A program made the translations under genes and the position numbers. From an uncultured Desulfobacter sp. (GTDB lineage: Bacteria > Desulfobacterota > Desulfobacteria > Desulfobacterales > Desulfobacteraceae), in the NCBI GenBank assembly GCA_963677125.1, contig OY781882.1, positions 5,490,518 to 5,514,517 on the forward strand: a stretch of 24,000 nucleotides of DNA, in the 5' to 3' direction. This document shows, in pieces, positions 9,479-23,959 of the stretch (its first letter is position 1; each line of letters starts with the position of its first letter). The notes under the pieces were generated by a model. It had not been told where the DNA came from, searched no databases, and worked only from the letters and a program-made list of their open reading frames with translations.

Positions 9479-10077
9479 ACGCCGACCCTCAATACAATGC
9501 ATGATAGATCATCAGATCCTTTCCCAAGATTGGTGATGAAATTGTTGCAGATATCCTCGGCACGGCCCGTGGTGATGCCTGGGTAGGCATTGGGATCAAA
9601 GTGTTCTTTGATCCCGTCAGAGGTCATAACCAGAATATCTCCGGGCATCATCCGGGTTTCGGACTGGGCAGGGGAGGGCATCATATAGCCCACAATGCCG
9701 TCTTTTGTGACAAGGGTTACCTGGCTTGTTCCGAATAATCGCAGATGAATATTCCCCATTCCTGAATATTGAAGCATCCCCGTGTCTATATCGAGTCTGC
9801 AGGCGGCCGCCACGGCACCCCGGGTTCCCTTTAAACACTGATGCAGACCGTTGATAATTTCGGTCAACGGCTTTGAATAATTTTGGGCCAGGTACTCTTT
9901 TGAAAGCCGTGCCACTTGCGCCGCATGTTTTCCATGTCCGAGCACATCCACCAGGGCAAGGAAACAAAAATTGTCGTACGCTTTGACAAAGCCGATATCC
10001 CCACACTCGTCCGGCTCTCCGGTCAACGCTTTTTTTTCTATGTGAAAATCAATGATCTGCCCGTTTAGTCTCATCAA
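9475..10077 (-). CDS. rsbX: RsbX-like PP2C/SpoIIE-family serine phosphatase (stressosome feedback phosphatase type)
   Basis: At 200 aa it is the same size as B. subtilis RsbX. It is collinear with RsbX from memory: ECGDIGFVK...[14 protein letters not shown] versus CGDSFFMK...CAVADGLGSGSLA; [11 protein letters not shown]...[13 protein letters not shown] versus RGATASILKIN...TYCSVGNVRFIL; and a C-terminal DDLSCIVLR. It directly abuts the rsbT-like stop at 10078. Confidence 0.8.
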
Positions 10078-10500
10078 TTAATCCATCCATTTGATTGCTG
10101 TTATCTGAGTGCCCACACCGGGTGTCGATCGAATCTGAAAATCATCCATAATCCGCTTTACACTGGGCAGGCCGAGTCCAAGTCCGTTTCCGGAACTGTA
10201 GTTTTCTTTCATGGCCATTTTCATATTGTTTATGCCTGGACCCTGATCCTGGGCATTGACCTTAAACCCTATCTTGTCACCACGGTGAATGATGCTTAAG
10301 GTAATTTTTCCCTTTCGCGCATACCGGATAATATTGGTGGATAATTCTGAAACCGCTGAAGCAATCAAATACTGTGCTGTTTCTCCAAAATGCATTTCAG
10401 CTAAAATTTTTCTGGCACTGTACACGACCTGGGCGTTGTCCGAGGGCTCATATAAATCAAAGGTCACCCGTTCATCTATAAAATTCATGGTATTTATCAT
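10078..10500 (-). CDS. rsbT: RsbT-like serine protein kinase (GHKL/anti-sigma-regulatory-factor family)
   Basis: N-box SELSTNIIRYA, G1 DQGPGI, G2 GNGLGLGLPSVKRIMDDF, and a C-terminal GTQITAIKWMD that is nearly identical in pattern to B. subtilis RsbT (GTEIQAIKWLR). The ORF track start at 10554 would overlap rsbS by 28 nt. I prefer ATG 10500 (MINTMNFIDE), which has GGAAAGGG upstream. ATG 10488 is also possible. Confidence 0.85.
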   Translation of the reverse strand: MINTMNFIDERVTFDLYEPSDNAQVVYSARKILAEMHFGETAQYLIASAVSELSTNIIRYARKGKITLSIIHRGDKIGFKVNAQDQGPGINNMKMAMKENYSSGNGLGLGLPSVKRIMDDFQIRSTPGVGTQITAIKWMD

Positions 10501-10526
10501 CAAGTTCAGGCCCTTTCCGGCAATAT

Positions 10527-10904
10527 TTAATCCAACGCAAAGGTGGTTAACCACTTAAAGGCATCATCAATGTTTCTTGCGGTTATAATATCATCAAAGC
10601 CGGTATCCAGATCCACTAACGACGCGGCAACGCCTGGTCGAAACCCTGAAAAAACCGGGGTCGTACCCATCATGGCAATGGCCCTGGCTGCATTTTTCAA
10701 GAGAGCAAATTCGTTTGAATTCAGAATTGTCACGTCAGATAGGTCGATGATGACACCTTTTGCCCGTTTTCTTGTCAGCTGTTTTAGGAGCGCTTCCCTT
10801 ATCCTTAAAATGCTGTTTTCATCCGAGTAACGGGTTAAAGATGCAATCAGGCAATTGTTGACCTGATGAATTGTTGAACCGGATGCGTTCGATGCTTCAT
10901 TCAT
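10527..10904 (-). CDS. rsbS: RsbS-like single-domain STAS protein (stressosome scaffold)
   Basis: 125 aa. VNNCLIASL matches the RsbS N-terminal LYNCLLVSI. GVIIDLSDVTILNSNEFALL aligns to [20 protein letters not shown], so the phosphorylatable Ser (Ser63 here, Ser59 in B. subtilis) is retained. The start forms an ATGA overlap with the stop of the upstream rsbR-like gene. Confidence 0.85.
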   Translation of the reverse strand: MNEASNASGSTIHQVNNCLIASLTRYSDENSILRIREALLKQLTRKRAKGVIIDLSDVTILNSNEFALLKNAARAIAMMGTTPVFSGFRPGVAASLVDLDTGFDDIITARNIDDAFKWLTTFALD

Positions 10905-11713
10905 TCATTTGCACCCTTTTGTTTTACCTTTAACCCCATCAGCCTGAACGCATCTGAAAGTGCATCCTGAAGCGTTGAATTGGTGGCGATATCCCCAAGC
11001 TCGATACCTAACTGGACAAGGGTTTCGGCAACCGCCGGGGAAATGCCGGAGATAATGCAGCGGCATCCCATCAATTTCGTGGCTTTGGCGATTTTAATCA
11101 AATGATTGGCCACAGCCGTATCCACGGCCGCCACCCCCTGGATGTCCAGGATGATCACCTTTGCCGCGGTTTCCATGATTTTGGAGAGCATGGTATTCAT
11201 CATTTGCTGGGCCCGCAGGGAGTCCACCACCCCCACCACCGGAAGAATCACGACCCTGTCCCAAAGTTTGATGGCCGGTGTTGATATCTCCATGATGGTC
11301 CGGCTCTGCTCTTTGAGTTTTTTTTCCTGCCTGACCCGCTCTGTGATATCAAGAATATATTCCAGACCGCCCACAATGTTTCCGTCCTCATCTTTCATGG
11401 CAGCCGCGGTGTATTCAATGGGGATAAATCTGTCGTTCACTTTCATTTCATTGCGGGTGGTAAAGGACTGTCCCCCTTCCATGACCTGTTTCATCCGGCA
11501 CTCTTCAGTTCCGCAATGACGCGATTGAAAGACATCACGGCATGGCATCATTTTGATCTCTTGCCAGGATTTTCCAAGCATGTTAAGTCCGGCCCTGTTT
11601 ACGAAAATGACCCTCATCTCACGGTTAACCGCCATAATCGGGGTAGGGAGCTGCTGGAGGATGTCGACTGCCAACTCTCCATCAATTTGATCGATGTCCG
11701 GATTATTCATCAC
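10901..11713 (-). CDS. rsbR: RsbR-like stressosome sensor: N-terminal PAS domain + C-terminal STAS domain
   Basis: 270 aa. The PAS domain spans aa ~15-125, ending in EYILDITERV. The STAS region is EISTPAIKLWDRVVILPVVGVVDSLRAQQMM...ILDIQGVAAVDTAVANHL...ISGISPAVAETLVQLGIEL, collinear with the RsbRA C-terminus. Ser165 and Thr199 sit at the positions of the RsbRA phospho-sites T171 and T205. A GAAGGAGA SD precedes ATG 11713. Confidence 0.85.
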   Translation of the reverse strand: MMNNPDIDQIDGELAVDILQQLPTPIMAVNREMRVIFVNRAGLNMLGKSWQEIKMMPCRDVFQSRHCGTEECRMKQVMEGGQSFTTRNEMKVNDRFIPIEYTAAAMKDEDGNIVGGLEYILDITERVRQEKKLKEQSRTIMEISTPAIKLWDRVVILPVVGVVDSLRAQQMMNTMLSKIMETAAKVIILDIQGVAAVDTAVANHLIKIAKATKLMGCRCIISGISPAVAETLVQLGIELGDIATNSTLQDALSDAFRLMGLKVKQKGANE

Positions 11714-12216
11714 AGATATCTCCTTCGGTTGTTGTTTGATGTTGTGATATGATCAATTACCTGACGATATATTTTTCTTTTTGCTTCATTTTTTCGGTGG
11801 TTCTGTATATGCCAAAAGGGACGTCGGCGAAAAAGAAAAAAGAAAAAGAGGGACGAAAAAGAGCCCCCATTGACATCGCTTTAACAGGCATTTATGCCCT
11901 TTTCGCTTAAACATGATGTTTGCCATAATGAATAAAAAGAATATGTTATAGAGTCAATCGATTTTTTAAAGCAAATAATGCATTCATAACATTTGGCTTT
12001 AAATCTTGCAATGTTAAAAATGAATGGTTCATCTTGGTAAGATCGCTTTTTTTTCGACCGAAAAACATGGGATGGGCTGCCGGGCGGCAAAAATTAATAT
12101 TATGTAACAGCCTGTTGAGAAAAAAATTAAAATGACTTAAACTGATCTGCAGGTAATAAATCGTACGAAAATTTATCCGGATTAATGATTCTAATGCCAT
12201 TGTTCAAGGTGTCAAA

Positions 12217-12951
12217 ATGACCAAAGATTTTAATCATTCAATTCTGATCGTTGATGATGAGGAAAAAATCGGAAAAGCACTTGAACGTCTGATCAAAAAG
12301 ACCGGTGCCCGTTCTTTTTACGCATCTTCGGGCTCCCAGGCTCTGGATTTCATCCAAACATCAGAAGAACCGCTCTCCATGATACTTTCGGACCAGAGGA
12401 TGCCGGGGATGGAAGGTACCCAGTTTTTGGAAAAGGCCAGGGCCATTACCCCGGATACCATTCGATTTCTGATTACCGGCTATGCAGATATCGATTCGGT
12501 TTCAGATGCGGTAAATCGCGGCGCGGTTCATCGGTTTATTACAAAGCCCTGGGACAATGATGATTTATTGGAGATGATTAAATCTGGGTTGCAATATTAC
12601 GAATTGGTTGTTGAGAACCGGAATTTATTTGCGCTGGCTAAAAAACAAAATATTCGCCTTTATAATTTGAGCCAGGAGCTCAAACAAAAGGCGGCAGTGC
12701 ATAAACGGGTGATTGTACGAAAAGAGAAGCAGATCGTTCAGCTGAAAAAACGATTGGCGAAAGGCATTGATGAGGCAGATTTTTTTGAGCAGATAGAAAA
12801 ATTGCTTGACGAAAATCAGATGCTTGAAAAAGATAGAATTGTGTTATGCTACTGGGCTGTAATCAAAGATTTTTTCCTGAGATTTAAAGATCTTGCTGCG
12901 CGTGACGGGTTTCTTATGCCCACAGAAACCGAACCGGACCACAAAGTGTAA
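12217..12951 (+). CDS. Response regulator: canonical REC domain + C-terminal coiled coil, no recognisable output domain
   Basis: 244 aa. REC motifs are ILIVDDEE, MILSDQRMPGMEG (Asp59), LITGY and FITKPWD, followed by about 110 aa of heptad-like K/E/L-rich sequence. An AAGGTG SD lies 6 nt upstream of the ATG. Confidence 0.9.
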   Translation: MTKDFNHSILIVDDEEKIGKALERLIKKTGARSFYASSGSQALDFIQTSEEPLSMILSDQRMPGMEGTQFLEKARAITPDTIRFLITGYADIDSVSDAVNRGAVHRFITKPWDNDDLLEMIKSGLQYYELVVENRNLFALAKKQNIRLYNLSQELKQKAAVHKRVIVRKEKQIVQLKKRLAKGIDEADFFEQIEKLLDENQMLEKDRIVLCYWAVIKDFFLRFKDLAARDGFLMPTETEPDHKV

Positions 12952-12995
12952 TTTGATTTTGCAGTTAAGGCATTTGAGAAAGACGGGTATTTTTT

Positions 12996-15494
12996 TTGCG
13001 TTCCAGAAGCAAAGGGGCCTTTATCATCGAAACTAAACAACAGGAAAACAAAATCCTGATAATCGACCCGCAGGGTATAATTGAAAAGAAAACCGGGCTG
13101 TTATCGGAAAAAGGATTTGAGGTGGAGTGTTTTAACTCTCCCGCCGACGGCCTGGCACGTTTGGCCCAGGAGTCAGCATTCCCATATTTTCTGATTATTG
13201 AGGGATGTGTTGAAATAGAAAATGGACAAAAAACGATCCTTGCAAGGGCCAAAGAAATATCACCGGACACCCAGCGACTCTTGGTCGGAGCGCCTTTCGC
13301 ACTGCCCTCTTTTGTTAATGCGATAAATTTTGCCGGGATTCATGCGTGTCTGCCTTTGCCCTTTACGGACGAAGACCTGCTTGTTCAGGTCAGACTGCGG
13401 CATGATGAATATCTGGCCGGCAGAAAAATAAAAAGCCTCCAGAAGACGATTCAACGCCAGAATAAGCAGTTGTTTCAGATCGCTGGAAATTTGAGAAAGA
13501 AAGAGACGCTGTATGCGGAGCAGATTCAACAAAAAGAAAAGGAAATCAGAGTTCTGGAATCCAGGCTCAAAAGCCTTTTCGGGGACAATGAATTAGAATC
13601 CGGGCCAAAGCTTAAAACCCTGTTGGAAAAAGAAAATATTAGTTTAAATGCATTGGCCTTCCGGCAGGCATTTGATGATTTAAAAAAACGCGTTAGAGAC
13701 ATCTTTTTAACCATTATTTCAAAAAGCGAACAGTCTGAGGCGTTGATGCTTTCAGAAAAAGAGTTTATTCATGCCCTGGCACAACATTCTGATCAATTGG
13801 ATGAAACCATTGATACCACGGAATACGAATCCCTTGCCGGTTTGCTGACCCCGGTGCTTTTGAATTTAATGATTTGGCGGGTTAATCGTGACCCGGAAGG
13901 TATTTCGGACGAAAAACAGCAAGATGTCCTAAAATATTTCAGCATCGATTTTTTAGATAACAGGACCCAGGCTTATATTCGGCTTAACAAAGATGCTCCG
14001 GAAGGGATGACGGTTTACATGATAGAACAGCTTCTTCATAAAAACGGGATTATTTTTGGACTCATCGAAGAATCGTCCATCGAAGAATGGCTTTATGGAG
14101 ATGCCAGAACGGGAGAAAAGCTGCTTATTGCTGAGGGAAAGCAGCCTGTTTCGCCAACCCAGGGAGAAGTTCACTATTATTTCCCAAGCAATTTCAGGCG
14201 TGCAGGCAGAATAAATCCGGATGGAAGCATAGATTACAGAGACAGGGGCGAAGTGCCCCATGTGGAAGCGGGTATTATGCTGGCCTCAAAGATATTCCCT
14301 AAGCCCGGGGAACCCGGTATAGATGTTAAAGGCATGGAAATACCGGTGCCGGAGCCTGTGGATCAGGCTTTTTCCGCAGGGCCGGGTACCCGGTATAATG
14401 AAGACAAGACTGAAATTTTTTCAACCATAGGAGGTCAACCCCACTTGGATGTTATGGGGGTTGTCTCTGTTAACAAAGAATTCAGGATAAAAGGTGATGT
14501 CGGATTTGAAACCGGCAATATTGATTTCAATGGTAATGTCATTGTGCCGGGTACGGTCAAAGAAGGTTTTAAGGTTAAGTGCGTTTCACTCACAGCCAGG
14601 GAAATTTGCGGCGCACAGGTCGATGTGTCAGGAGATTTGAACGTATCAATGGGCATTGTGGATACAGATCTTATCAATGTTAAAGGCAATATCCAGGCCA
14701 AATACATTCACAATTGTACCATAAATTCCTTTGGGGATTTGACGGTGCACAAAGAGATCGTTGATTCCACCATTTATTTGAGCGGGGCCTGCGATAATGA
14801 AAGGGGCGTCATTCTTAATTCGACCCTGTCGGCAAAGGGCGGGATTAAAGCCGGTGCTGTAGGTAATGAATCTGCCGCACCATCGATTCTGACTGTTGGG
14901 GTTGATGAGCATGTAATCCGATTGGAGGATAAAATAAAATCCAGACTTACAATGAACAGGGATACGATTCATGAGCTTTCATCGGAGATCAGTCAGATGA
15001 AAGAGGTGGACAAGTGGCTTCACGGCACCATAACCGAGAATGCCCACGTTCAGGATCGGTCACTAATAGAGATTCGGGAACTTGAGAACAAAAGGGCCGC
15101 TTTGGACGGAACAAAAGATGCCGCTGAATTAAAAAGTATTTCCGATGGGATTCAAAAATTGGAAAAAAAAGCGAAATATGCAGGGGAAAAAATTAATGAA
15201 TGGTTTGAACGTCAGGACCAGATACATCATGATATTTCAGCAAAAGAGCTTAAAATCGAGGGGTTGGAAAATTTAAACAGGCTGCTTGTTGAACAATTAG
15301 AAAATCTAGAACAGATTTCAAATAAGTCCGCGTCTGTACCTGTGCTGAATATATCAAAGCACATTCAGTCCAAAACAAAAATTAAGGCCCCCCATTCGTT
15401 TAAAATCGTGGACAGGTCCTGCGCTCGATGTGACATAAGGGAAAGGAGTAAGAATGAAGGCGGCATTGTCTATTATATAATGGATATCACTTAA
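12996..15494 (+). CDS. FapA/DUF342-family protein with N-terminal degenerate (pseudo-)receiver domain and coiled coils
   Basis: 832-aa ORF. The central region carries the DUF342/FapA signature: FSIDFLDNRTQAYIRLNKD..., PGEPGIDVKGMEIPV, and repetitive GDVGFETGNIDFNGNVIVPGTVKEGFKV...VSGDLNV...VKGNIQA segments, with a long C-terminal coiled coil. The N-terminal ~125 aa align to the upstream REC domain but lack the catalytic residues. No in-frame ATG is available. The only plausible start is TTG 12996-12998, because the frame opens after TGA 12975-12977. Confidence 0.8.
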   Translation: MRSRSKGAFIIETKQQENKILIIDPQGIIEKKTGLLSEKGFEVECFNSPADGLARLAQESAFPYFLIIEGCVEIENGQKTILARAKEISPDTQRLLVGAPFALPSFVNAINFAGIHACLPLPFTDEDLLVQVRLRHDEYLAGRKIKSLQKTIQRQNKQLFQIAGNLRKKETLYAEQIQQKEKEIRVLESRLKSLFGDNELESGPKLKTLLEKENISLNALAFRQAFDDLKKRVRDIFLTIISKSEQSEALMLSEKEFIHALAQHSDQLDETIDTTEYESLAGLLTPVLLNLMIWRVNRDPEGISDEKQQDVLKYFSIDFLDNRTQAYIRLNKDAPEGMTVYMIEQLLHKNGIIFGLIEESSIEEWLYGDARTGEKLLIAEGKQPVSPTQGEVHYYFPSNFRRAGRINPDGSIDYRDRGEVPHVEAGIMLASKIFPKPGEPGIDVKGMEIPVPEPVDQAFSAGPGTRYNEDKTEIFSTIGGQPHLDVMGVVSVNKEFRIKGDVGFETGNIDFNGNVIVPGTVKEGFKVKCVSLTAREICGAQVDVSGDLNVSMGIVDTDLINVKGNIQAKYIHNCTINSFGDLTVHKEIVDSTIYLSGACDNERGVILNSTLSAKGGIKAGAVGNESAAPSILTVGVDEHVIRLEDKIKSRLTMNRDTIHELSSEISQMKEVDKWLHGTITENAHVQDRSLIEIRELENKRAALDGTKDAAELKSISDGIQKLEKKAKYAGEKINEWFERQDQIHHDISAKELKIEGLENLNRLLVEQLENLEQISNKSASVPVLNISKHIQSKTKIKAPHSFKIVDRSCARCDIRERSKNEGGIVYYIMDIT

Positions 15495-15541
15495 ATTCAT
15501 TTCCCAAACTTTTGCGATACCCTATCTGCTATTGTTGTATT

Positions 15542-15686
15542 TAGTGTCTGAACGAAAACCTGGAAATTTTGTTGAGTACAAGGCGGCCTGAAATTAAAAC
15601 CTTCGGAATACATGGCGTATTTCGAGGATTAAAATTTCAGGCCAACGCCGTAATCGGCAAAATTTACGGTTTTCGGTCGGGCACTA
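15542..15686 (+). repeat. Long imperfect palindrome / extended hairpin (about 60 bp stem, 5-nt loop) in a convergent intergenic region; candidate structured RNA or REP/ERIC-like element
   Basis: Hand-paired. The left arm 15542-15611 pairs with the right arm 15617-15686 around loop ATGGC (15612-15616). The stem includes a perfect 11-bp core, GGCCTGAAATT (15585-15595) with AATTTCAGGCC (15633-15643). Six G-U pairs are possible only in the plus-strand transcript, against one A-C position. See the finding for details. Confidence 0.6.
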
Positions 15687-15738
15687 TTTAAGCGGGACAG
15701 GTTTACTTAACTTATAAGGGAGGAGAGACACTTCATGG

Positions 15739-16572
15739 TCAGGGACTGTCTTGATTTGATTCAAGTCCCTCCGGCAATGGAGTTACGGTCCGAATTGCAA
15801 AATGTCGGTCTTGAATTGTTGTTTTAAGTGCTCTAATACGGGCTTTACACTCGGGATGAGAGGCAAAATACGCCATGAGTCTTCCCGGATCATGGGCCGC
15901 CCCCAAGGCTTGGAAAAATTCGATGGCACCGCCGGCATGGCCATAGTAACAGACCAGGGTTTCCAGGGCCTGGGCGTCGGCCATGGCTTCCCGCTGCCTG
16001 GAATATCGGGCCTGGGTTAAATGGACACCCGGTGCCGTCAGTTGGGTGATGCTTGAACCGGACCCTGTCAAAAGTGCTGAAAGTGCTGTAAGTACAATGC
16101 CGCGGCCCATACCCCGAAGATGATCCCGATGTTTGAAATGTCCCAGTTCATGGGCCAGAACAAAGGCAATCCCGTTTTCCGAACGGATCATGTCAAAAAT
16201 GCCTGAAAACACCACAATGGTTCCTCCGGCAAGCGCCAGGGCATTGGCTGTGTCCGAGGGAATAACGATAATTTTCACAGGATAATCAACATCGCAGCAT
16301 TGTCGTAATTCATCCGTAAGATGCTGAAGCGAGGCCTGACCGCGTTGATCTTCCGGGGGGCCGAGGTTTAAAGGGATCTGGAACCGGGAAAAGATAGCAG
16401 CTTCCATTTCAGGCGAAATGCGGGCGACGGCCCAGTCCACCAGAAATCCGAGTATGAAATAGGCAAAAAGAAAAAAGGCAATTATGCCGGACAACAGCAC
16501 CAACGCCTCTTTGACCGGGCTGTCTTGGGAAATATTGTCGTTGCTTTGGGGCCGTAACGGCTTATAATCCAT
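15739..16572 (-). CDS. M48-family zinc metallopeptidase (HtpX/Ste24-like), membrane anchored
   Basis: 277 aa. N-terminal TM segment ALVLLSGIIAFFLFAYFILGFLV. HExxH motif in AHELGHFKHRDH. The downstream REAMADAQALE matches the M48 third-ligand/ExxAD region. The start overlaps the stop of the upstream gene (TGATG). Confidence 0.85.
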   Translation of the reverse strand: MDYKPLRPQSNDNISQDSPVKEALVLLSGIIAFFLFAYFILGFLVDWAVARISPEMEAAIFSRFQIPLNLGPPEDQRGQASLQHLTDELRQCCDVDYPVKIIVIPSDTANALALAGGTIVVFSGIFDMIRSENGIAFVLAHELGHFKHRDHLRGMGRGIVLTALSALLTGSGSSITQLTAPGVHLTQARYSRQREAMADAQALETLVCYYGHAGGAIEFFQALGAAHDPGRLMAYFASHPECKARIRALKTTIQDRHFAIRTVTPLPEGLESNQDSP

Positions 16573-18786: not shown

Positions 18787-20664
18787 ATGGCACGTTTAAA
18801 TGAGTTTGAACTGTCCGTTATAAAAGTCACTGACAGTCCATTAATATACAAGGCGCAGATCCCTTCGGAGTGCACATTTTTTCAGGATGTCCGACGCTAC
18901 CAGAGTATTGGGCCCCAGATGGAAATCCGTATTATTCCGGTAAATGGGTTGATCGAGCTTGACTCGGACATGGAGCCCGTATCCTTTAATAAATTAAGCG
19001 GGGCCGAACGTAAGGCCCTGGTGGATTACCTGACGGTTCGTGTTGCAAGAGGCGATAATATCGGGTATGCATGGGCCTTTTTTCGGCCTGCGGATAAAAA
19101 AAGGTGCCTTGTGGCCTACGGCGGCAACGTGGTCCATGATGATACCTATACGGGAAAAGAACGCGTTACGGCTTTGCTTTCGGCGCTTAAAAAGCAAAAA
19201 GGCATCAGCAAAATGAAACGGCGCTGGTTTCCCTGGCTTGCCGCCCTTCTGCTTATATCTCTGGTCGTTTTTGCCGGGGTCAAATATGGCAATCTGGTAA
19301 AAAAGATTCCCTTTATCAGCAGTATCGGCAAGGCTTCCGGTCCTGAAATGCAGTTTTATGAATCCGTATTTCCTGATTTGTATGCCTGGCTGTCCAAGGG
19401 CGAGCCGGAACAAAAAGATGTGGCGAAAAAGCTTTTGAAAACCGAATACATCTCATCCATGCTTCACACCATGACCCAGCCTGATTACCTTCAGGACGGA
19501 GAGGAGGGGATGGACCGGGGCAACAGGCTGATCCTGTTTGTCTATTTTAATTATAACAAACAGGTTGAAGAGTTGATCAGTTCCCGTCGGTTGATTCTGG
19601 CAGGTACGGAATTCATTCGTTTGTCACGGATTTATTCAACCCTGCAGTCCGGATATGCTTCCAATATTTTTTATTTCAAGGTTGGAGATTTGAACATCCG
19701 GCATACGGAGATCTCCAATTACATGAAACAGAACATGATCTCCTATCATGATTTTAAAAAGATCAGGGATGAAAATGCCTTTGCAGAACTGATGGCCAGT
19801 GACCGTATCAGTTATAAAATGAAGGGTTTTTTGGAAAATGTGTACACCTTTACCCCTCTTCGCATTGACACAAAACTTGATGGTAAATCCTGGTACCTGC
19901 TCACCCGGAATAACAGTGCCGGCAATATAGATTTTGCCGCCTTTTTCCACCAGGGCAGCGCTACACTGGTTCCCAAACGCATAGGCCATCTGGTGCTCGG
20001 AGACAAGGGCCTGCCTGCAGACATGGCCTGGTATGCATTGGATGACAGCCAGGCCGGGGGGCTTAAACTGTCGGACAGTTCCCAAACCTATTTTAGTACA
20101 GAGACCGGCCAGACCAACCAGCTCGGTATTATCCAGAAACGCATTGATAGCTTAAATCTTTCCAAGGTGTCCGAAGGCCGGGTGAAGGTCAGCGTTCACC
20201 GGGAATTGCTCATGGGGGATGCAAAGGGCAAATACGGCATCCAGACCAATGATCCCATCACAAGCCTGGTGCTGTCCAACCTGATCACCAAATCATCCTT
20301 TGAACAGGAGGCCAATGTATCCCTCAAGCGGGACCCCATCCAGTTTAATACCACATTGATTCAGCTCTCCAAAGACGACAGTTTTTCAGTTCAGTCTGTG
20401 ACCATCACGCCGGGCACCACCAATATCATCCGCTTGTTTGAGCCTTTGGACAGTTTTAAGGCAACGTTTAGGGACGGCACTTCCACCACCTTTGAAAAGG
20501 CCAGTGTCAATTTGTTCAACCCATTTACGTTTATGGTATCCAGGGACAGCATCGTTTTATGTTTCCGTCATGACATTACTGACATGACCATCGAGGCCAA
20601 CGGCACGGAGCTTCAAGTCGTAAAGGCCAAAGACGGAAACTATCAGATTGTGAAAATCCCTTAG
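18787..20664 (+). CDS. Hypothetical bitopic membrane protein (about 140-aa cytoplasmic N-domain, one TM, about 460-aa extracytoplasmic domain)
   Basis: 625-aa ORF with a strong SD (AAGGAGAA) 8 nt upstream of the ATG. A single hydrophobic helix, WFPWLAALLLISLVVFAGV (aa ~147-165), is preceded by the basic cluster KKQKGISKMKRR, which implies an N-in orientation. I recognise no family motif. Confidence 0.75.
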   Translation: MARLNEFELSVIKVTDSPLIYKAQIPSECTFFQDVRRYQSIGPQMEIRIIPVNGLIELDSDMEPVSFNKLSGAERKALVDYLTVRVARGDNIGYAWAFFRPADKKRCLVAYGGNVVHDDTYTGKERVTALLSALKKQKGISKMKRRWFPWLAALLLISLVVFAGVKYGNLVKKIPFISSIGKASGPEMQFYESVFPDLYAWLSKGEPEQKDVAKKLLKTEYISSMLHTMTQPDYLQDGEEGMDRGNRLILFVYFNYNKQVEELISSRRLILAGTEFIRLSRIYSTLQSGYASNIFYFKVGDLNIRHTEISNYMKQNMISYHDFKKIRDENAFAELMASDRISYKMKGFLENVYTFTPLRIDTKLDGKSWYLLTRNNSAGNIDFAAFFHQGSATLVPKRIGHLVLGDKGLPADMAWYALDDSQAGGLKLSDSSQTYFSTETGQTNQLGIIQKRIDSLNLSKVSEGRVKVSVHRELLMGDAKGKYGIQTNDPITSLVLSNLITKSSFEQEANVSLKRDPIQFNTTLIQLSKDDSFSVQSVTITPGTTNIIRLFEPLDSFKATFRDGTSTTFEKASVNLFNPFTFMVSRDSIVLCFRHDITDMTIEANGTELQVVKAKDGNYQIVKIP

Positions 20665-20712
20665 AAACCAATGTTTTGAAGACATCAGCATCAAGGAGTT
20701 TTATTTAATCAT

Positions 20713-22218
20713 ATGTTTGATAACACAGACCGGCTTTTAAAAATCCAGGACGGTATCAAGGCAGTTATTCAGCAACTTGCCGAGCTGCCGGCCCGGCAGG
20801 TAGACCGGGTGGAAAAGGTCATTGAACGCTGCCAAAGGTGCCTGAAAACGGCACCGGAAACGGATTTGCCCGTGTACATCCACATTACGGGTACGGATAA
20901 ATCCTTTAAGACCAGCTATCTTTTAGACCTGTTTGACAATGACGCGCTTCGTAGGCTGTTTGCGGTCAAGCAGCGAAACACCTCGGAGAATACGGCGGTT
21001 CCCTGTCTTGTGGAACCGGTATCCTGGACCGACGAGGTGGTGGTCAGCCAGATCAGCATTTCCACGGGGAATGTAATCCGGGACCGTTTAACCCAGGAGC
21101 AGTTTAACCGGCTGTATGATCTGTCTTCCGGGGCAGAGCCGGATGATTATCTCATCCGGGTGGCTGTGCCCGAAGACCAGACCACCATGACATTGCCGGC
21201 CATCGAATATCCGGGGATTAAAGAGGGTGCGGATGCCGTTGAATTCCAAAAGGAGCGCCATGAGAAGTTCCAGGCCAATATGCTGGATTGCATGGAGCGC
21301 TATCCCGGCATCCTGGTGGCCTGTTTTCAGCACAAAATCGCCATTCCTCCGGGGCATCCTTTAGATGCCATTCTTAAAAAATACCGTACGGTATTGGAAA
21401 CCACCCACGCATACCAGAAATTGCCGTTAATTTTGTCTTTGCAGGGGGACAGTGCCGTGGCAAGTTATTGCGGCAATACCAATGTGGAGCAGGACCTTGA
21501 AAGCGATTTCAAAAGCTATAAAGCCTTTGAAACTGTTGTGCAATTGATTAACCCGTGTAACAGTGAATACCCGGTGAATTTTATCTCCCCGGGTCCACAC
21601 GTGGACACCTGGATACGCAATTTGTCCCGGTATAAAGATTTGCGTGAAATCAAAGATGAGATCAAAAAGGATGGGGGCATTGCCTGGTCCCGTCAGATGC
21701 TCGGCGATCTGTGCACCACCTCAAATATCAGAGACGCCCTTGACAATATGTTTTTGATGCCCTGGATCAAGAAGGCTGAAAAGGTGCATACCCAGGCCGT
21801 TGATCTGATTTATGCAATCGAAAGCTATGATGAAGTGGCCGACGTCAAAGAGCGCATGCGCAAAGCCATTCTCAACGATACCTACCAGAGCCTGAGGCAT
21901 TTTTTTGACCGGGAGATCCAATACAATGAAGAGGGGATAATTGAGGACCACAGCACGTTCTGGAATGCCATATTTACCCAGTACCTCGACCAGTTTTTGG
22001 CCGATACCCCCAAAAGCCAGGCCATTGCCGATGTCCTGTGGAAAAACTTGCACCAGCGCCTGGATCCCGAGAACAAAGGCTTTTTGAGTGCAGCGGAAAA
22101 GGATTTGCCCCACATCATCATGAATATGGCGGAATTTTATGTTCCCAATATGCTGGTGCGCGGTGATTTCACCCTTGTAGAAAGACGTATTAAAGAGGAT
22201 GGCCAAGATGTGGTTTAA
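20713..22218 (+). CDS. Hypothetical protein; putative dynamin-like (BDLP/LeoA-type) GTPase-fold protein with degenerate nucleotide-binding motifs
   Basis: 501-aa ORF with an AAGGAG SD 14 nt upstream. The N-terminal half is collinear with bacterial dynamin-like GTPase domains, aligned from memory:
- VYIHITGTDKSFKTSYLLDLF versus LLVLGDMKRGKSTFLNALIG (G1).
- SENTAVPCLVEP versus NPCTAVLTVLRYG (switch 1).
- TLPAIEYPGIKEG versus GIEIVDSPGLNDT (G3).
- LPLILSLQGD versus VFFLVNAWD (G4).
The C-terminal half is helical and stalk-like. The functional call is an inference. Confidence 0.6.
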   Translation: MFDNTDRLLKIQDGIKAVIQQLAELPARQVDRVEKVIERCQRCLKTAPETDLPVYIHITGTDKSFKTSYLLDLFDNDALRRLFAVKQRNTSENTAVPCLVEPVSWTDEVVVSQISISTGNVIRDRLTQEQFNRLYDLSSGAEPDDYLIRVAVPEDQTTMTLPAIEYPGIKEGADAVEFQKERHEKFQANMLDCMERYPGILVACFQHKIAIPPGHPLDAILKKYRTVLETTHAYQKLPLILSLQGDSAVASYCGNTNVEQDLESDFKSYKAFETVVQLINPCNSEYPVNFISPGPHVDTWIRNLSRYKDLREIKDEIKKDGGIAWSRQMLGDLCTTSNIRDALDNMFLMPWIKKAEKVHTQAVDLIYAIESYDEVADVKERMRKAILNDTYQSLRHFFDREIQYNEEGIIEDHSTFWNAIFTQYLDQFLADTPKSQAIADVLWKNLHQRLDPENKGFLSAAEKDLPHIIMNMAEFYVPNMLVRGDFTLVERRIKEDGQDVV

Positions 22219-23959
22219 TCTGTTCAAACGAAAAAAAAAGGAAGTGGATCAGTTCCAGCTGGAACTGGAGGATGACGGCAAACTTTATTATGAAACCATT
22301 GCCGGACGGACCCCAAGGGACATTCAGAACCACGAGGAATATATTCTTTTTATTGATTTTGGATCTTACCGGACCAGTGTGTTGTGCTGGCCCTGCAGCT
22401 TTGGCCGGGATAAAATCACCGACTCATGGCAGTATGTGGTCCATGGGGACTCCGATGCCCAGGGGGGATTTCCTTCGGCTTTTATTAATCCGCCTTCCGG
22501 TGATGAGCGCGATTTTGCCTTTGTACCCAATATGGGTCAAGATCGTGTCAGTTCAAGCCAGATTGTTAAAAGCGCCAAATATGAATTTGCCTCCAAATTT
22601 GCCGCCTACCGGGGCGATGTGCCCCAGTTCAAGCTTTATATCAAAAAGATTCTTGAACACAGTTTCAGATACATTACCGAACCCAATAAGGATCGGCCCT
22701 GGAACGGTCCTGCCATTCCGGTGATTACGGAAATCCGGGTTACTGTGCCGGACCTATTCATTGAAAATTTGAGAAACGGATACCGGGAAAACATCTATTC
22801 CGTGTGCATGAACCTCTCCTCTGACCGGAAATGGAAATGGTTGTTCCCAAGTGATTTGAGACATTTGCGTAAAACGTTTGTCAATATTTCTGCCGATGAA
22901 AGCGGGGCGTGTGAGCTTTATTTTTTAAACCTGATCAAGCAGTTGCCCTTCTGGGATCTGTCCGGTCAAAAAGATCGGCTGCCCAATTTAAAAGAAGTGG
23001 ACTTTATCTTTTCCCAGGCAGCCCAGAGAGACCCTAATACCGAAAATCTTCAGTTTGTGGTGTGTCACATCGACATTGGCGGTCTGACCACCGATGTCAG
23101 CGTTCTTCTGGCCAATACTTTCCAGGACCCGGCCCTTGGCATCACCACCGCCCTGAACCGAAAGGAATCCTTTTCCGAAAGAAAGGCCGGGGAGTATTTT
23201 GCCGAAGCCTTTGCCCAGACCAGGTTGCCGGAAGAAACCGGTCCCTGGTGGGACAGTGACCGGTTCATCAGCAGGGATTTTTCACGATTTTTGGAATTGC
23301 TGTGCGGCAAACAGGCCGGCTTGCTTAATAAATGGCGCCAGGACAAAAATCTGTCCGGCATCTACTTTCTGATTTCAGGTCGTCCGACCAAATCCGAAAA
23401 GGTCAGAAAAGCCATTAAAAAGCATATCCTCAAGGAGTTTAATAAGGATGAACTGCTGCTTTTGCCCGAGCATTGCCTGTTCATGGCCGATTACCGGCAT
23501 GTGGGCAAAAACCAGGAAGGCGAGCGCTATGCCAAAAAAATCTCCCACTTTGAAAAACTGATTACCCTGCTCGGCAACGTGTATACCTTGTACGATGGGT
23601 ATGAAATTTGTGTGGATGACCACAAGTATTATATTTCCATGGACACGGATACCCGGACCACGGCCCAGATGGAGGTGCTGCCCGGACGGATCTATAATAT
23701 GGAAGAGTTTGAAAATTACAAGAAATCTGCAGAGCACAATAACGTCAATCATTTGGCTTTTACCCGGTTTCCGGAAGGGGAGAACAGCACCCGGTTTCTG
23801 ACGGTAAAAACCATTGCCCGGCAGAACGCTTTTCCCGTTATCCGGGTAGCCCAGACCAATGACGGCCAGGCATGGATTATGCCGTCGCTGATGATTACGA
23901 ACCTGGAGCAGAATGATCAGGCGTTTGATTTGTCATGGGGGGCCTTGTCACTGGAATAA
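22199..23959 (+). CDS. Hypothetical protein; non-canonical Hsp70/actin-fold (ASKHA) ATPase with C-terminal beta-rich extension
   Basis: 586-aa ORF that overlaps the upstream gene. Start is ATG 22199 or, better, ATG 22208, which has GAGG 9 nt upstream. All Hsp70 NBD motifs appear in order:
- ILFIDFGSYRTSV (phosphate-1, versus IGIDLGTTNS).
- ITEIRVTVPDLF (versus AVITVPAYF).
- ISADESGACELYF (versus INEPTAAALAY).
- VVCHIDIGGLTTDVSVL (phosphate-2, versus VYDLGGGTFDISI).
- IYFLISGRPTKSEKVRKAI (adenosine motif, versus VILVGGQTRMPMVQKKV). Confidence 0.7.
   Translation: MAKMWFNLFKRKKKEVDQFQLELEDDGKLYYETIAGRTPRDIQNHEEYILFIDFGSYRTSVLCWPCSFGRDKITDSWQYVVHGDSDAQGGFPSAFINPPSGDERDFAFVPNMGQDRVSSSQIVKSAKYEFASKFAAYRGDVPQFKLYIKKILEHSFRYITEPNKDRPWNGPAIPVITEIRVTVPDLFIENLRNGYRENIYSVCMNLSSDRKWKWLFPSDLRHLRKTFVNISADESGACELYFLNLIKQLPFWDLSGQKDRLPNLKEVDFIFSQAAQRDPNTENLQFVVCHIDIGGLTTDVSVLLANTFQDPALGITTALNRKESFSERKAGEYFAEAFAQTRLPEETGPWWDSDRFISRDFSRFLELLCGKQAGLLNKWRQDKNLSGIYFLISGRPTKSEKVRKAIKKHILKEFNKDELLLLPEHCLFMADYRHVGKNQEGERYAKKISHFEKLITLLGNVYTLYDGYEICVDDHKYYISMDTDTRTTAQMEVLPGRIYNMEEFENYKKSAEHNNVNHLAFTRFPEGENSTRFLTVKTIARQNAFPVIRVAQTNDGQAWIMPSLMITNLEQNDQAFDLSWGALSLE

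Follow-up and report, generated by a model that had tools for sequence, protein, structure and literature searches.

A divergent dynamin-superfamily protein of Desulfobacteraceae with non-canonical nucleotide-binding motifs, its gene flanked by those for a membrane protein and an Hsp70-fold ATPase

A GTP-binding site that varies very little is the defining trait of dynamin-superfamily proteins. The canon of this site, as set out in the review of Daumke and Praefcke, comprises a G1 motif (the P-loop) of the form GxxxxGKS/T, a conserved Thr in G2, a conserved Asp in G3 (DxxG) followed by a hydrophobic residue in place of a catalytic Gln, which is a trait of the superfamily, and a G4 motif N/TKxD (RD in the case of GBP and atlastin), in which recognition of the guanine base falls to the Asp; the third P-loop position is taken by the catalytic Ser41 in dynamin, by Arg48 in GBP1 and by Lys in BDLP (PMC5084822). 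Most bacterial operons that encode dynamin-like proteins (DLPs) pair two of them (PMC6104087). Here we describe gene 2, the middle one of three co-directional genes on the + strand of a 24,000-nucleotide stretch of DNA from an uncultured Desulfobacter sp. (contig OY781882.1, positions 5,490,518 to 5,514,517), which was analysed as a whole and is called the window. Gene 2 belongs to this known superfamily by its fold, yet it fails two of the defining motifs and escapes current family models. In the literature that we searched, the coverage of which was incomplete, we did not find described the gene 2 family, an operon joining a dynamin-like protein to an Hsp70, or a dynamin-fold P-loop devoid of its second Gly.

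Gene 2 encodes a protein of 501 amino acids (aa) from an ATG start, with AAGGAG at 20693-20698, 14 nt upstream. The protein gave no match in Pfam, NCBIfam or PADLOC (E <= 1) or in PHROGs (E <= 0.1), nor among the PDB sequences when searched either as a single sequence or as a family profile. In particular, Pfam Dynamin_N (PF00350) and the NCBIfam dynamin models leave it unmatched at E <= 1, and the same Dynamin_N model picks up six canonical DLPs elsewhere in this genome. The named homologs are all annotated as 'hypothetical protein'. Its fold was assessed on an AlphaFold2 model built on a 28-sequence alignment (mean pLDDT 87.7, pTM 0.72), which divides the gene as follows.

20713..22218, + strand: coding sequence of gene 2, a divergent dynamin-superfamily protein or 'mini-DLP' (open reading frame (ORF) list, AlphaFold2 model, Foldseek)
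20722..20847, + strand: two N-terminal helices, aa 4-23 and 27-45 (DSSP on the model)
20854..21600, + strand: large G domain spanning about aa 48-296; an insertion separates switch 1 from G3 (secondary-structure order; hhalign over 343 columns)
21601..22206, + strand: C-terminal all-helical region, aa 297-498 (DSSP)

In the model the elements of the G domain follow the order b1-a1-b2-(insert)-b3-a2-b4-a3-b5-a4-b6, as assigned by DSSP, and the N-terminal helices probably pack with the C-terminal ones into a bundle resembling the bundle signalling element (BSE) or helical domain 1 (HD1). No hydrophobic or paddle segment was found, since no 19-residue window has a Kyte-Doolittle mean above 1.6. 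The comparison of the model with the PDB by Foldseek gave 29 matches at E <= 0.001, of which the top 26 are all members of the dynamin superfamily (E 2.9e-9 to 4.7e-4, probabilities 0.94-1.00); these include MFN1 (2.9e-9), IniA, MFN2, Fzo1, MxB, a Campylobacter DLP, Drp1, MxA and AtDRP1A, and also Nostoc BDLP, dynamin 1 and 3, SynDLP, EHD2/4 and atlastin. Further down come MnmE, additional atlastin structures, GBP1, GTPases of the IRG type and, among others, MeaB, with small GTPases not reached until E > 0.01. The top alignments extend over 305-592 columns (420-570 to the G+HD1 constructs of MFN1 and MFN2, to IniA and to the DLPs), and with such a span they cover the helical part of the protein as well. 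Judged by this model, gene 2 is a genuine, if highly divergent, member of the dynamin superfamily by fold, and it can be regarded as a natural 'mini-DLP', predicted to consist of a large G domain and one helical bundle, with neither paddle nor transmembrane segment. An extended G domain of the TRAFAC type (about 250-300 aa, with insertions) beside a helical bundle that takes in N-terminal helices is a mark of the superfamily, and the model and its best matches agree with it. Members of the superfamily are also marked by G domains that dimerise in response to nucleotide, by hydrolysis that is stimulated on assembly, and by the binding and remodelling of membranes. The dynamin-like fold claimed in the original prediction is thus borne out by a model of good confidence and by its 26 best matches, and the search against the PDB, which might have led to a different fold, led to the dynamin superfamily instead.

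It could still be argued that gene 2 has no relationship to dynamins and belongs elsewhere among the TRAFAC or P-loop proteins, its likeness to dynamins being due to convergence or to an artefact of the model. The global TM-scores of the matches are indeed low (0.25-0.39) with a large rmsd, no library match to Dynamin_N was obtained, and the profile-profile alignment presented below has a low probability. However, low global TM-scores are expected for hinged multi-domain proteins, the dynamin-superfamily matches occupy all 26 top positions with the helical bundle included, ahead of any small GTPase, and the order of the motifs together with the hydrophobic residue after G3 fits the superfamily. 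We consider this explanation very improbable.

The register of the motifs was obtained by aligning the gene 2 family profile to profile (hhalign) with the six Dynamin_N proteins of the same genome, five of which carry GxxxxGKS, DTPG and [T/N/A][K/R]ID, whereas the sixth (at 2096035) has DCQG and NCDL. The alignment reached E = 0.15 with 28 sequences and E = 0.0072 over 343 columns with 76 sequences, with a low probability; taken by itself this score is weak, but for G1, G2 and G3 the register accords with the fold. It places G60-x4-F65-K66-T67 on G-x4-G-K-S, T94 on the switch-1 Thr and E165-Y-P-G168 on D-T-P-G of the canonical DLPs, and it sets T-K-I-D opposite Q244-G245-D246-S247 in a stretch of low confidence.

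20890..20916, + strand: deviant G1/P-loop GTDKSFKTS, aa 60-68, G60-T-D-K-S-F65-K66-T67-S68 (conservation and hhalign register)
20983..21018, + strand: switch 1/G2 region SENTAVPCLVEP, aa 91-102, including SENTAVPC, with T94 (nt 20992-20994) and C98 invariant
aa 160-172: TLPAIEYPGIKEG, the segment that contains G3
21205..21216, + strand: G3/switch 2, E165-Y-P-G168, then the hydrophobic I169 (aligned to D-T-P-G of canonical DLPs)
21436..21453, + strand: G4 position, S242-L-Q244-G245-D246-S247, at the end of strand b5 (238-244), lacking N/TKxD, the Lys and a conserved Asp
21550..21555, + strand: possible G5-like N280-P281 after strand b6 (conservation, DSSP)

Conservation at these positions was counted in 76 full-length members of the family. 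In the alignment that includes the distant members, H57, G60, K66, S68, T94, C98, P167 and G168 are invariant and E165 nearly so; G60, K66, S68, T94, C98, P167 and G168 are each found in 76/76. Measured against the canon, G1 is kept only in part, because the Lys and the Ser/Thr are retained and the second Gly is gone: the family consensus of the P-loop is G-x-x-[KRS]-x-[FYMLQA]-K-[TS]-S, and the second Walker Gly is absent in 76/76. The switch-1 Thr of G2 is present throughout (T94, 76/76). In G3, a conservative change of Asp to Glu gives E-Y-P-G in 75/76 and D-Y-P-G in 1/76, and position 169, which follows, is always hydrophobic (I, M or V). The N/TKxD of G4 is missing: position 244 is Q in 67 members, N in 7 and H in 2, G245 occurs in 75/76, position 246 is variable (E26, D18, A14, S6, G5, R3, V2, T1) and position 247 is mostly Ser (S58, T8 and D3 among the 76), which in either possible register provides neither a Lys nor a conserved Asp. 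Downstream, N280 (75/76) precedes an invariant P281 (76/76), and from its position alone this Asn is a possible counterpart of the G5 Asn of dynamin. The pair K63-S64 was also considered as the true Walker Lys-Ser and was rejected, since position 63 varies among K, R and S and K66 is invariant.

All four motif strings quoted in the original prediction were found in gene 2 where it had placed them, and the order and register that it gave for G1, G2 and G3 agree with the profile-profile alignment. Its reading of a retained Lys-Thr in the P-loop holds for the family (K66 in all members, position 67 being T in 71 and S in 5), as does that of a preserved TAV in switch 1, with T94 on the switch-1 Thr of the canonical DLPs, and that of EYPG in place of DxPG (E165 in 75 members, D in 1). 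Two other readings stood only partly. A P-loop of the form GxxxxFKT was right as to the missing Gly, but the Phe is not fixed (F66, Y4, M3, L1, Q1, A1 and never Gly at position 65), so that the conserved feature is the absence of Gly and not the presence of Phe. Likewise, for G4 read as LQGD (aa 243-246, nt 21439-21450), the lack of the canonical Lys and of a conserved Asp was confirmed, but the register may shift by one, to Q244-S247.

A word-indexed search yielded 68 clusters of gene 2 homologs at 90% identity, and the family is small, since an exhaustive HMMER scan of 1.84 billion representatives gave only 18 matches, 15 of them at E <= 1e-30. Its named members belong to Desulfobacter, Desulfobacula, Desulfamplus and Desulfocicer. 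In whole-genome searches, full-length gene 2 was recovered from 56 of 151 Desulfobacteraceae genomes (a 57th match, a fragment of 25 residues with E = 3.8e-6, was left out of the count), which comprise 19 of the 24 genomes of the window's genus and represent 9 of the 19 genera of the family; searches of 196 genomes from the order's remaining families and of about 385 genomes elsewhere in the phylum did not find it. A few distant members, with 23-41% identity, occur only on metagenome contigs. Identity falls from 81-90% in close relatives (labelled Desulfobacter or unlabelled) to about 62% in Desulfobacula and about 55% in Desulfamplus, thus following taxonomy and suggesting vertical descent, and the module is present in single copy.

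The original prediction had raised the doubt that orthologs might carry canonical G motifs, the deviations being then a decay particular to one strain; the alignment of the 76 full-length relatives shows instead that the substitutions are family-wide. Compared with a same-genus ortholog, gene 2 has a dN/dS of 0.08. Since the deviations are shared by the whole family and dN/dS is this low, the non-canonical motifs are ancestral to the family and are kept by purifying selection. Strain-specific decay of a canonical dynamin-like gene is thereby refuted: the deviant motifs recur in at least 9 genera and in the distant metagenome members, the reading frame is intact in 56 genomes, and the same genome separately keeps its six Dynamin_N proteins, five of them with canonical motifs. 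No point in favour of decay was found.

Some further traits of the family were observed. H57 on strand b1 and C98 on strand b2 are invariant across the family; C204 (strand b4) and H215 are invariant in close members, and among the distant ones C204 is nearly so and H215 is variable. Some of these residues, such as H57, C98 and C204, might come together in a cluster, for example a metal or redox site. Several orthologs (P0041, P0052, P0057 and P0060, two of them from jgi/Logan contigs) carry a low-complexity insertion of 25-50 aa (DDSWQ...) after helix alpha-3 of the G domain, which maps between residues 232 and 233 of gene 2 (alignment columns about 249-300). In one genome (G267) gene 2 was matched in two pieces that form one open frame of 551 aa, probably with the same insertion.

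The residues that would handle phosphate and Mg2+ are those that the family has retained, namely Lys66, Thr/Ser67, Thr94, Glu/Asp165 to Gly168 and the hydrophobic residue after G3, and this conservation favours a working nucleoside triphosphatase (NTPase), as far as sequence can indicate. Therefore, the reading that we prefer, and to which we would give slightly better than an even chance, is that gene 2 may be an active NTPase that has kept the phosphate and Mg2+ chemistry and has lost canonical guanine recognition. The protein would still bind and hydrolyse a nucleoside triphosphate with a reshaped P-loop, because the phosphate, Mg2+ and gamma-phosphate residues are invariant down to 23% identity, and its base specificity would be relaxed or non-guanine, possibly for ATP, because the G4 N/TKxD that specifies guanine is gone. 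The EHD ATPases are a precedent for the use of ATP in the dynamin superfamily (PMC5084822).

Several observations weigh against this reading and agree better with a pseudo-NTPase scaffold, that is, a G domain that neither binds nor hydrolyses nucleotide productively, in which the conserved 'motif' residues would serve to stabilise the fold or to bind partners and gene 3, the Hsp70-fold ATPase encoded next to it, would be the sole source of energy for the module; this is the alternative named in the original prediction. In every one of the 76 members bulky and variable residues stand in for the second Walker Gly, whose normal role is to allow the P-loop to wrap around the beta-phosphate, and a P-loop deprived of it might not permit phosphate to bind in the normal way. 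Asp62 occupies the third P-loop position in 68/76. Helix alpha-1 begins at residue 63 in the model (DSSP), three residues before Lys66, which makes the predicted P-loop unusually short and helical; this fits the loss of the second Gly and may narrow the hole in which phosphate is bound. G4 is missing, with no conserved Asp at 246 or 247, and gene 3, the best conserved of the three genes, has the full set of ASKHA phosphate motifs. To this it may be added, again to the disadvantage of an active dynamin-type NTPase, that the similarity to the Dynamin_N profile lies under all library thresholds and that the hhalign probability is low. On the other hand, pseudoGTPases that do not bind nucleotide usually let their phosphate and Mg positions drift, and here Lys66, Thr/Ser67, Ser68, Thr94, Glu/Asp165 and Gly168 are all kept down to 23% identity. 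We regard the scaffold as doubtful, although it is the alternative that has to be taken most seriously.

The function of gene 2 has to be considered together with that of the two genes that flank it.

18787..20664, + strand: gene 1, first of the triad, a bitopic membrane protein of 625 aa (single transmembrane segment at about aa 146-172)
22199..23959, + strand: gene 3, an Hsp70-fold ATPase of 586 aa (AlphaFold2, Foldseek, invariant motifs)

Homologs of gene 1 form 96 clusters and those of gene 3 form 42, the latter with the same taxonomic range as gene 2. Neither gene gave a match in Pfam, NCBIfam, PADLOC (E <= 1), PHROGs or the PDB sequences (phmmer and profile searches). The AlphaFold2 model of gene 3 (pLDDT 84.3, pTM 0.85) has full-length DnaK, Hsp110/Sse1, BiP and Hsc70 as its top Foldseek matches (E ~1e-10, about 600-660 columns), and D53, G55, T59 and D292-x-G-G-x-T-T-D299 are invariant; from these matches and residues gene 3 is assigned an Hsp70 fold with intact phosphate-1 and phosphate-2 motifs, in accordance with the Hsp70-like neighbour that had been proposed for gene 2. 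The longest ORF of gene 3 opens at ATG 22199 and overlaps the end of gene 2, and orthologs have 583 aa. Since these align from residue 4, the true start is probably ATG 22208, with an overlap of 11 nt; the same 11-nt overlap is found in Desulfobacula toluolica (locus L003, 9493-9503).

The order membrane protein, gene 2, gene 3 is also that of D. toluolica (623, 500 and 583 aa) and is kept in two distant metagenome loci, L022 and L023 (641/518/626 and 666/516/572 aa), in which all three proteins are homologous to those of the window, with identities of 22-31% for gene 1, 28-30% for gene 2 and 30-35% for gene 3. Gene 3 is present, directly adjacent, in exactly the 56 of 151 genomes that have full-length gene 2, and its identity to the Desulfobacula proteins is the highest of the three (75-77%, compared with 62% for gene 2 and 52-54% for gene 1). 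The three genes are thus co-inherited as a triad of fixed order. A conserved fourth gene was rejected, as the gene downstream differs between genomes and nothing else is kept around the triad. A link to magnetosomes, considered because of Desulfamplus, was also rejected, as the triad is carried as well by genera that are not magnetotactic.

The genes that follow the triad vary from locus to locus. In the genome under study, just past the end of the window and directly after gene 3, they are an adenosine-specific kinase (PF04008, E 7e-76; L002 559-1098, equivalent to 24041-24580 in window numbering) and a 512-aa protein with a Fic/DOC domain (L002 1519-3057, equivalent to 25001-26539); neither is conserved with the triad in L003 or L023. 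Fic enzymes AMPylate the Hsp70 BiP in eukaryotes. In D. toluolica the triad is followed by a 428-aa canonical Hsp70-family protein (L003 11470-12756; PF00012, with a weak match to MreB_Mbl), possibly a fourth, accessory component in certain lineages. At the distant locus L023, two large co-directional genes come after the triad (9787-15746), one encoding 1228 aa with no Pfam match and the other 730 aa with weak vWA and TssR_VWA matches.

This gene context points to an undescribed, membrane-associated machine of three proteins. In the mechanism that we propose, gene 2 would be the nucleotide-gated part, dimerising or working as a lever, of an obligate complex of all three proteins, the bitopic gene 1 protein would anchor it to the cytoplasmic membrane, and the Hsp70-fold ATPase would serve as a second motor or as a regulator. 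Gene 1 probably supplies the membrane attachment because gene 2 has no membrane-binding element of its own. Carried to its full extent, the proposal is that the triad may form an undescribed membrane or envelope machine with two motors, in which a non-guanine dynamin NTPase, possibly using ATP, would be obligately coupled to an Hsp70-type ATPase and held by a bitopic anchor with a large extracytoplasmic domain; it would then be the first known dynamin-Hsp70 partnership in prokaryotes, and the P-loop lacking the second Walker Gly would represent a new solution to nucleotide binding. We advance this fuller version only tentatively, as it is in our view more doubtful than probable.

A role of the triad in anti-phage defence or another genetic conflict, with a dynamin-like protein as in the Eleos/LeoA-type defences, would be compatible with either an active or an inactive gene 2. 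Dynamin-like GTPases do serve in prokaryotic immunity (bioRxiv 10.64898/2026.10.19.760177). The patchy occurrence of the triad (missing from 5/24 same-genus genomes and from 9/19 genera of the family) and the 1228-aa and vWA-like proteins downstream of its distant version in L023 could be seen in the same light. However, genes 1-3 are unmatched in PADLOC and PHROGs, the triad is single copy with identities that follow taxonomy, as in vertical descent, and its flanks are metabolic or housekeeping genes that differ between genomes, with no defence-island neighbours seen at the loci examined. A defence role consequently appears improbable to us, clearly more so than either reading of the nucleotide site.

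The genome also has DLPs of the usual kind, outside the window. One of the Dynamin_N proteins (C1:2259761-2261254, - strand) is 498 aa long; its P-loop, GNYSSGKSS, resembles that of EHDs, it carries DTPG and NRID, and a hydrophobic stretch lies at about aa 330-390. Conserved across the genus (L007-L014) at a length of about 500 aa, it represents a small canonical DLP distinct from gene 2. Canonical DLPs also occur in two tandem pairs, of 666+555 aa and 644+570 aa (C1:5119136-5122694 and 4328088-4331716), which show the usual layout of paired-DLP operons, the first pair lying about 390 kb upstream of the window.

What distinguishes gene 2 is that a whole family under selection does without the second Walker Gly, has Glu for the switch-2 Asp and lacks a guanine-reading G4. 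An active NTPase of this kind would widen the chemistry of the dynamin fold and add a second non-GTP branch beside the EHDs, and an inactive one would be, to our knowledge, the first bacterial pseudo-dynamin. The strict coupling of the genes makes the triad a compact and experimentally tractable three-gene module in sulfate-reducing Desulfobacteraceae, and a family model made from the gene 2 alignments would improve annotation, as current profiles miss the family.

Among known systems, Eleos (formerly 'Dynamins'), the LeoA/LeoBC anti-phage system, resembles the triad in having dynamin-like proteins in a small operon, but its partners are others, and the distribution of the triad looks vertical and lineage-restricted; the LeoA/LeoBC models of PADLOC leave genes 1-3 unmatched at E <= 1. 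EHD2 and EHD4 are among the Foldseek matches of gene 2 at ranks 22, 23 and 26. Gene 2 lacks three features of the EHDs: GxxxxGKT, an NKxD-type G4 with a guanine-excluding Met after it, and an EH domain at the C-terminus. PseudoGTPases such as the pG domains of p190RhoGAP, CENP-M and degenerate septins share with it a GTPase fold with non-canonical G motifs, and a scaffold in a hetero-oligomer would be one plausible role for gene 2; unlike class-I pseudoGTPases, however, its family keeps invariant the Lys of the Walker motif, the Mg-binding Ser/Thr, the Thr of switch 1 and the Gly of switch 2. The best structural matches are mitofusin, Fzo1 and the bacterial DLPs (Nostoc BDLP, Campylobacter DLP1/2, Mycobacterium IniA, Synechocystis SynDLP), with which gene 2 has in common a large G domain flanked by helices that form a bundle, the order G1-G2-G3, the switch-1 Thr and a switch 2 of the form D/ExPG with a hydrophobic residue after it. 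It differs from them in its length of 501 aa, with neither the second helical domain (trunk) nor the paddle or transmembrane tip, in the lack of the second Gly in the P-loop, in having Glu for the G3 Asp and no N/TKxD, and in having as operon partners an Hsp70-fold ATPase and a bitopic membrane protein and not a second DLP. In its architecture, gene 2 is therefore closer to the engineered 'minimal GTPase domain' constructs of mitofusin (G + HD1) than to full BDLP.

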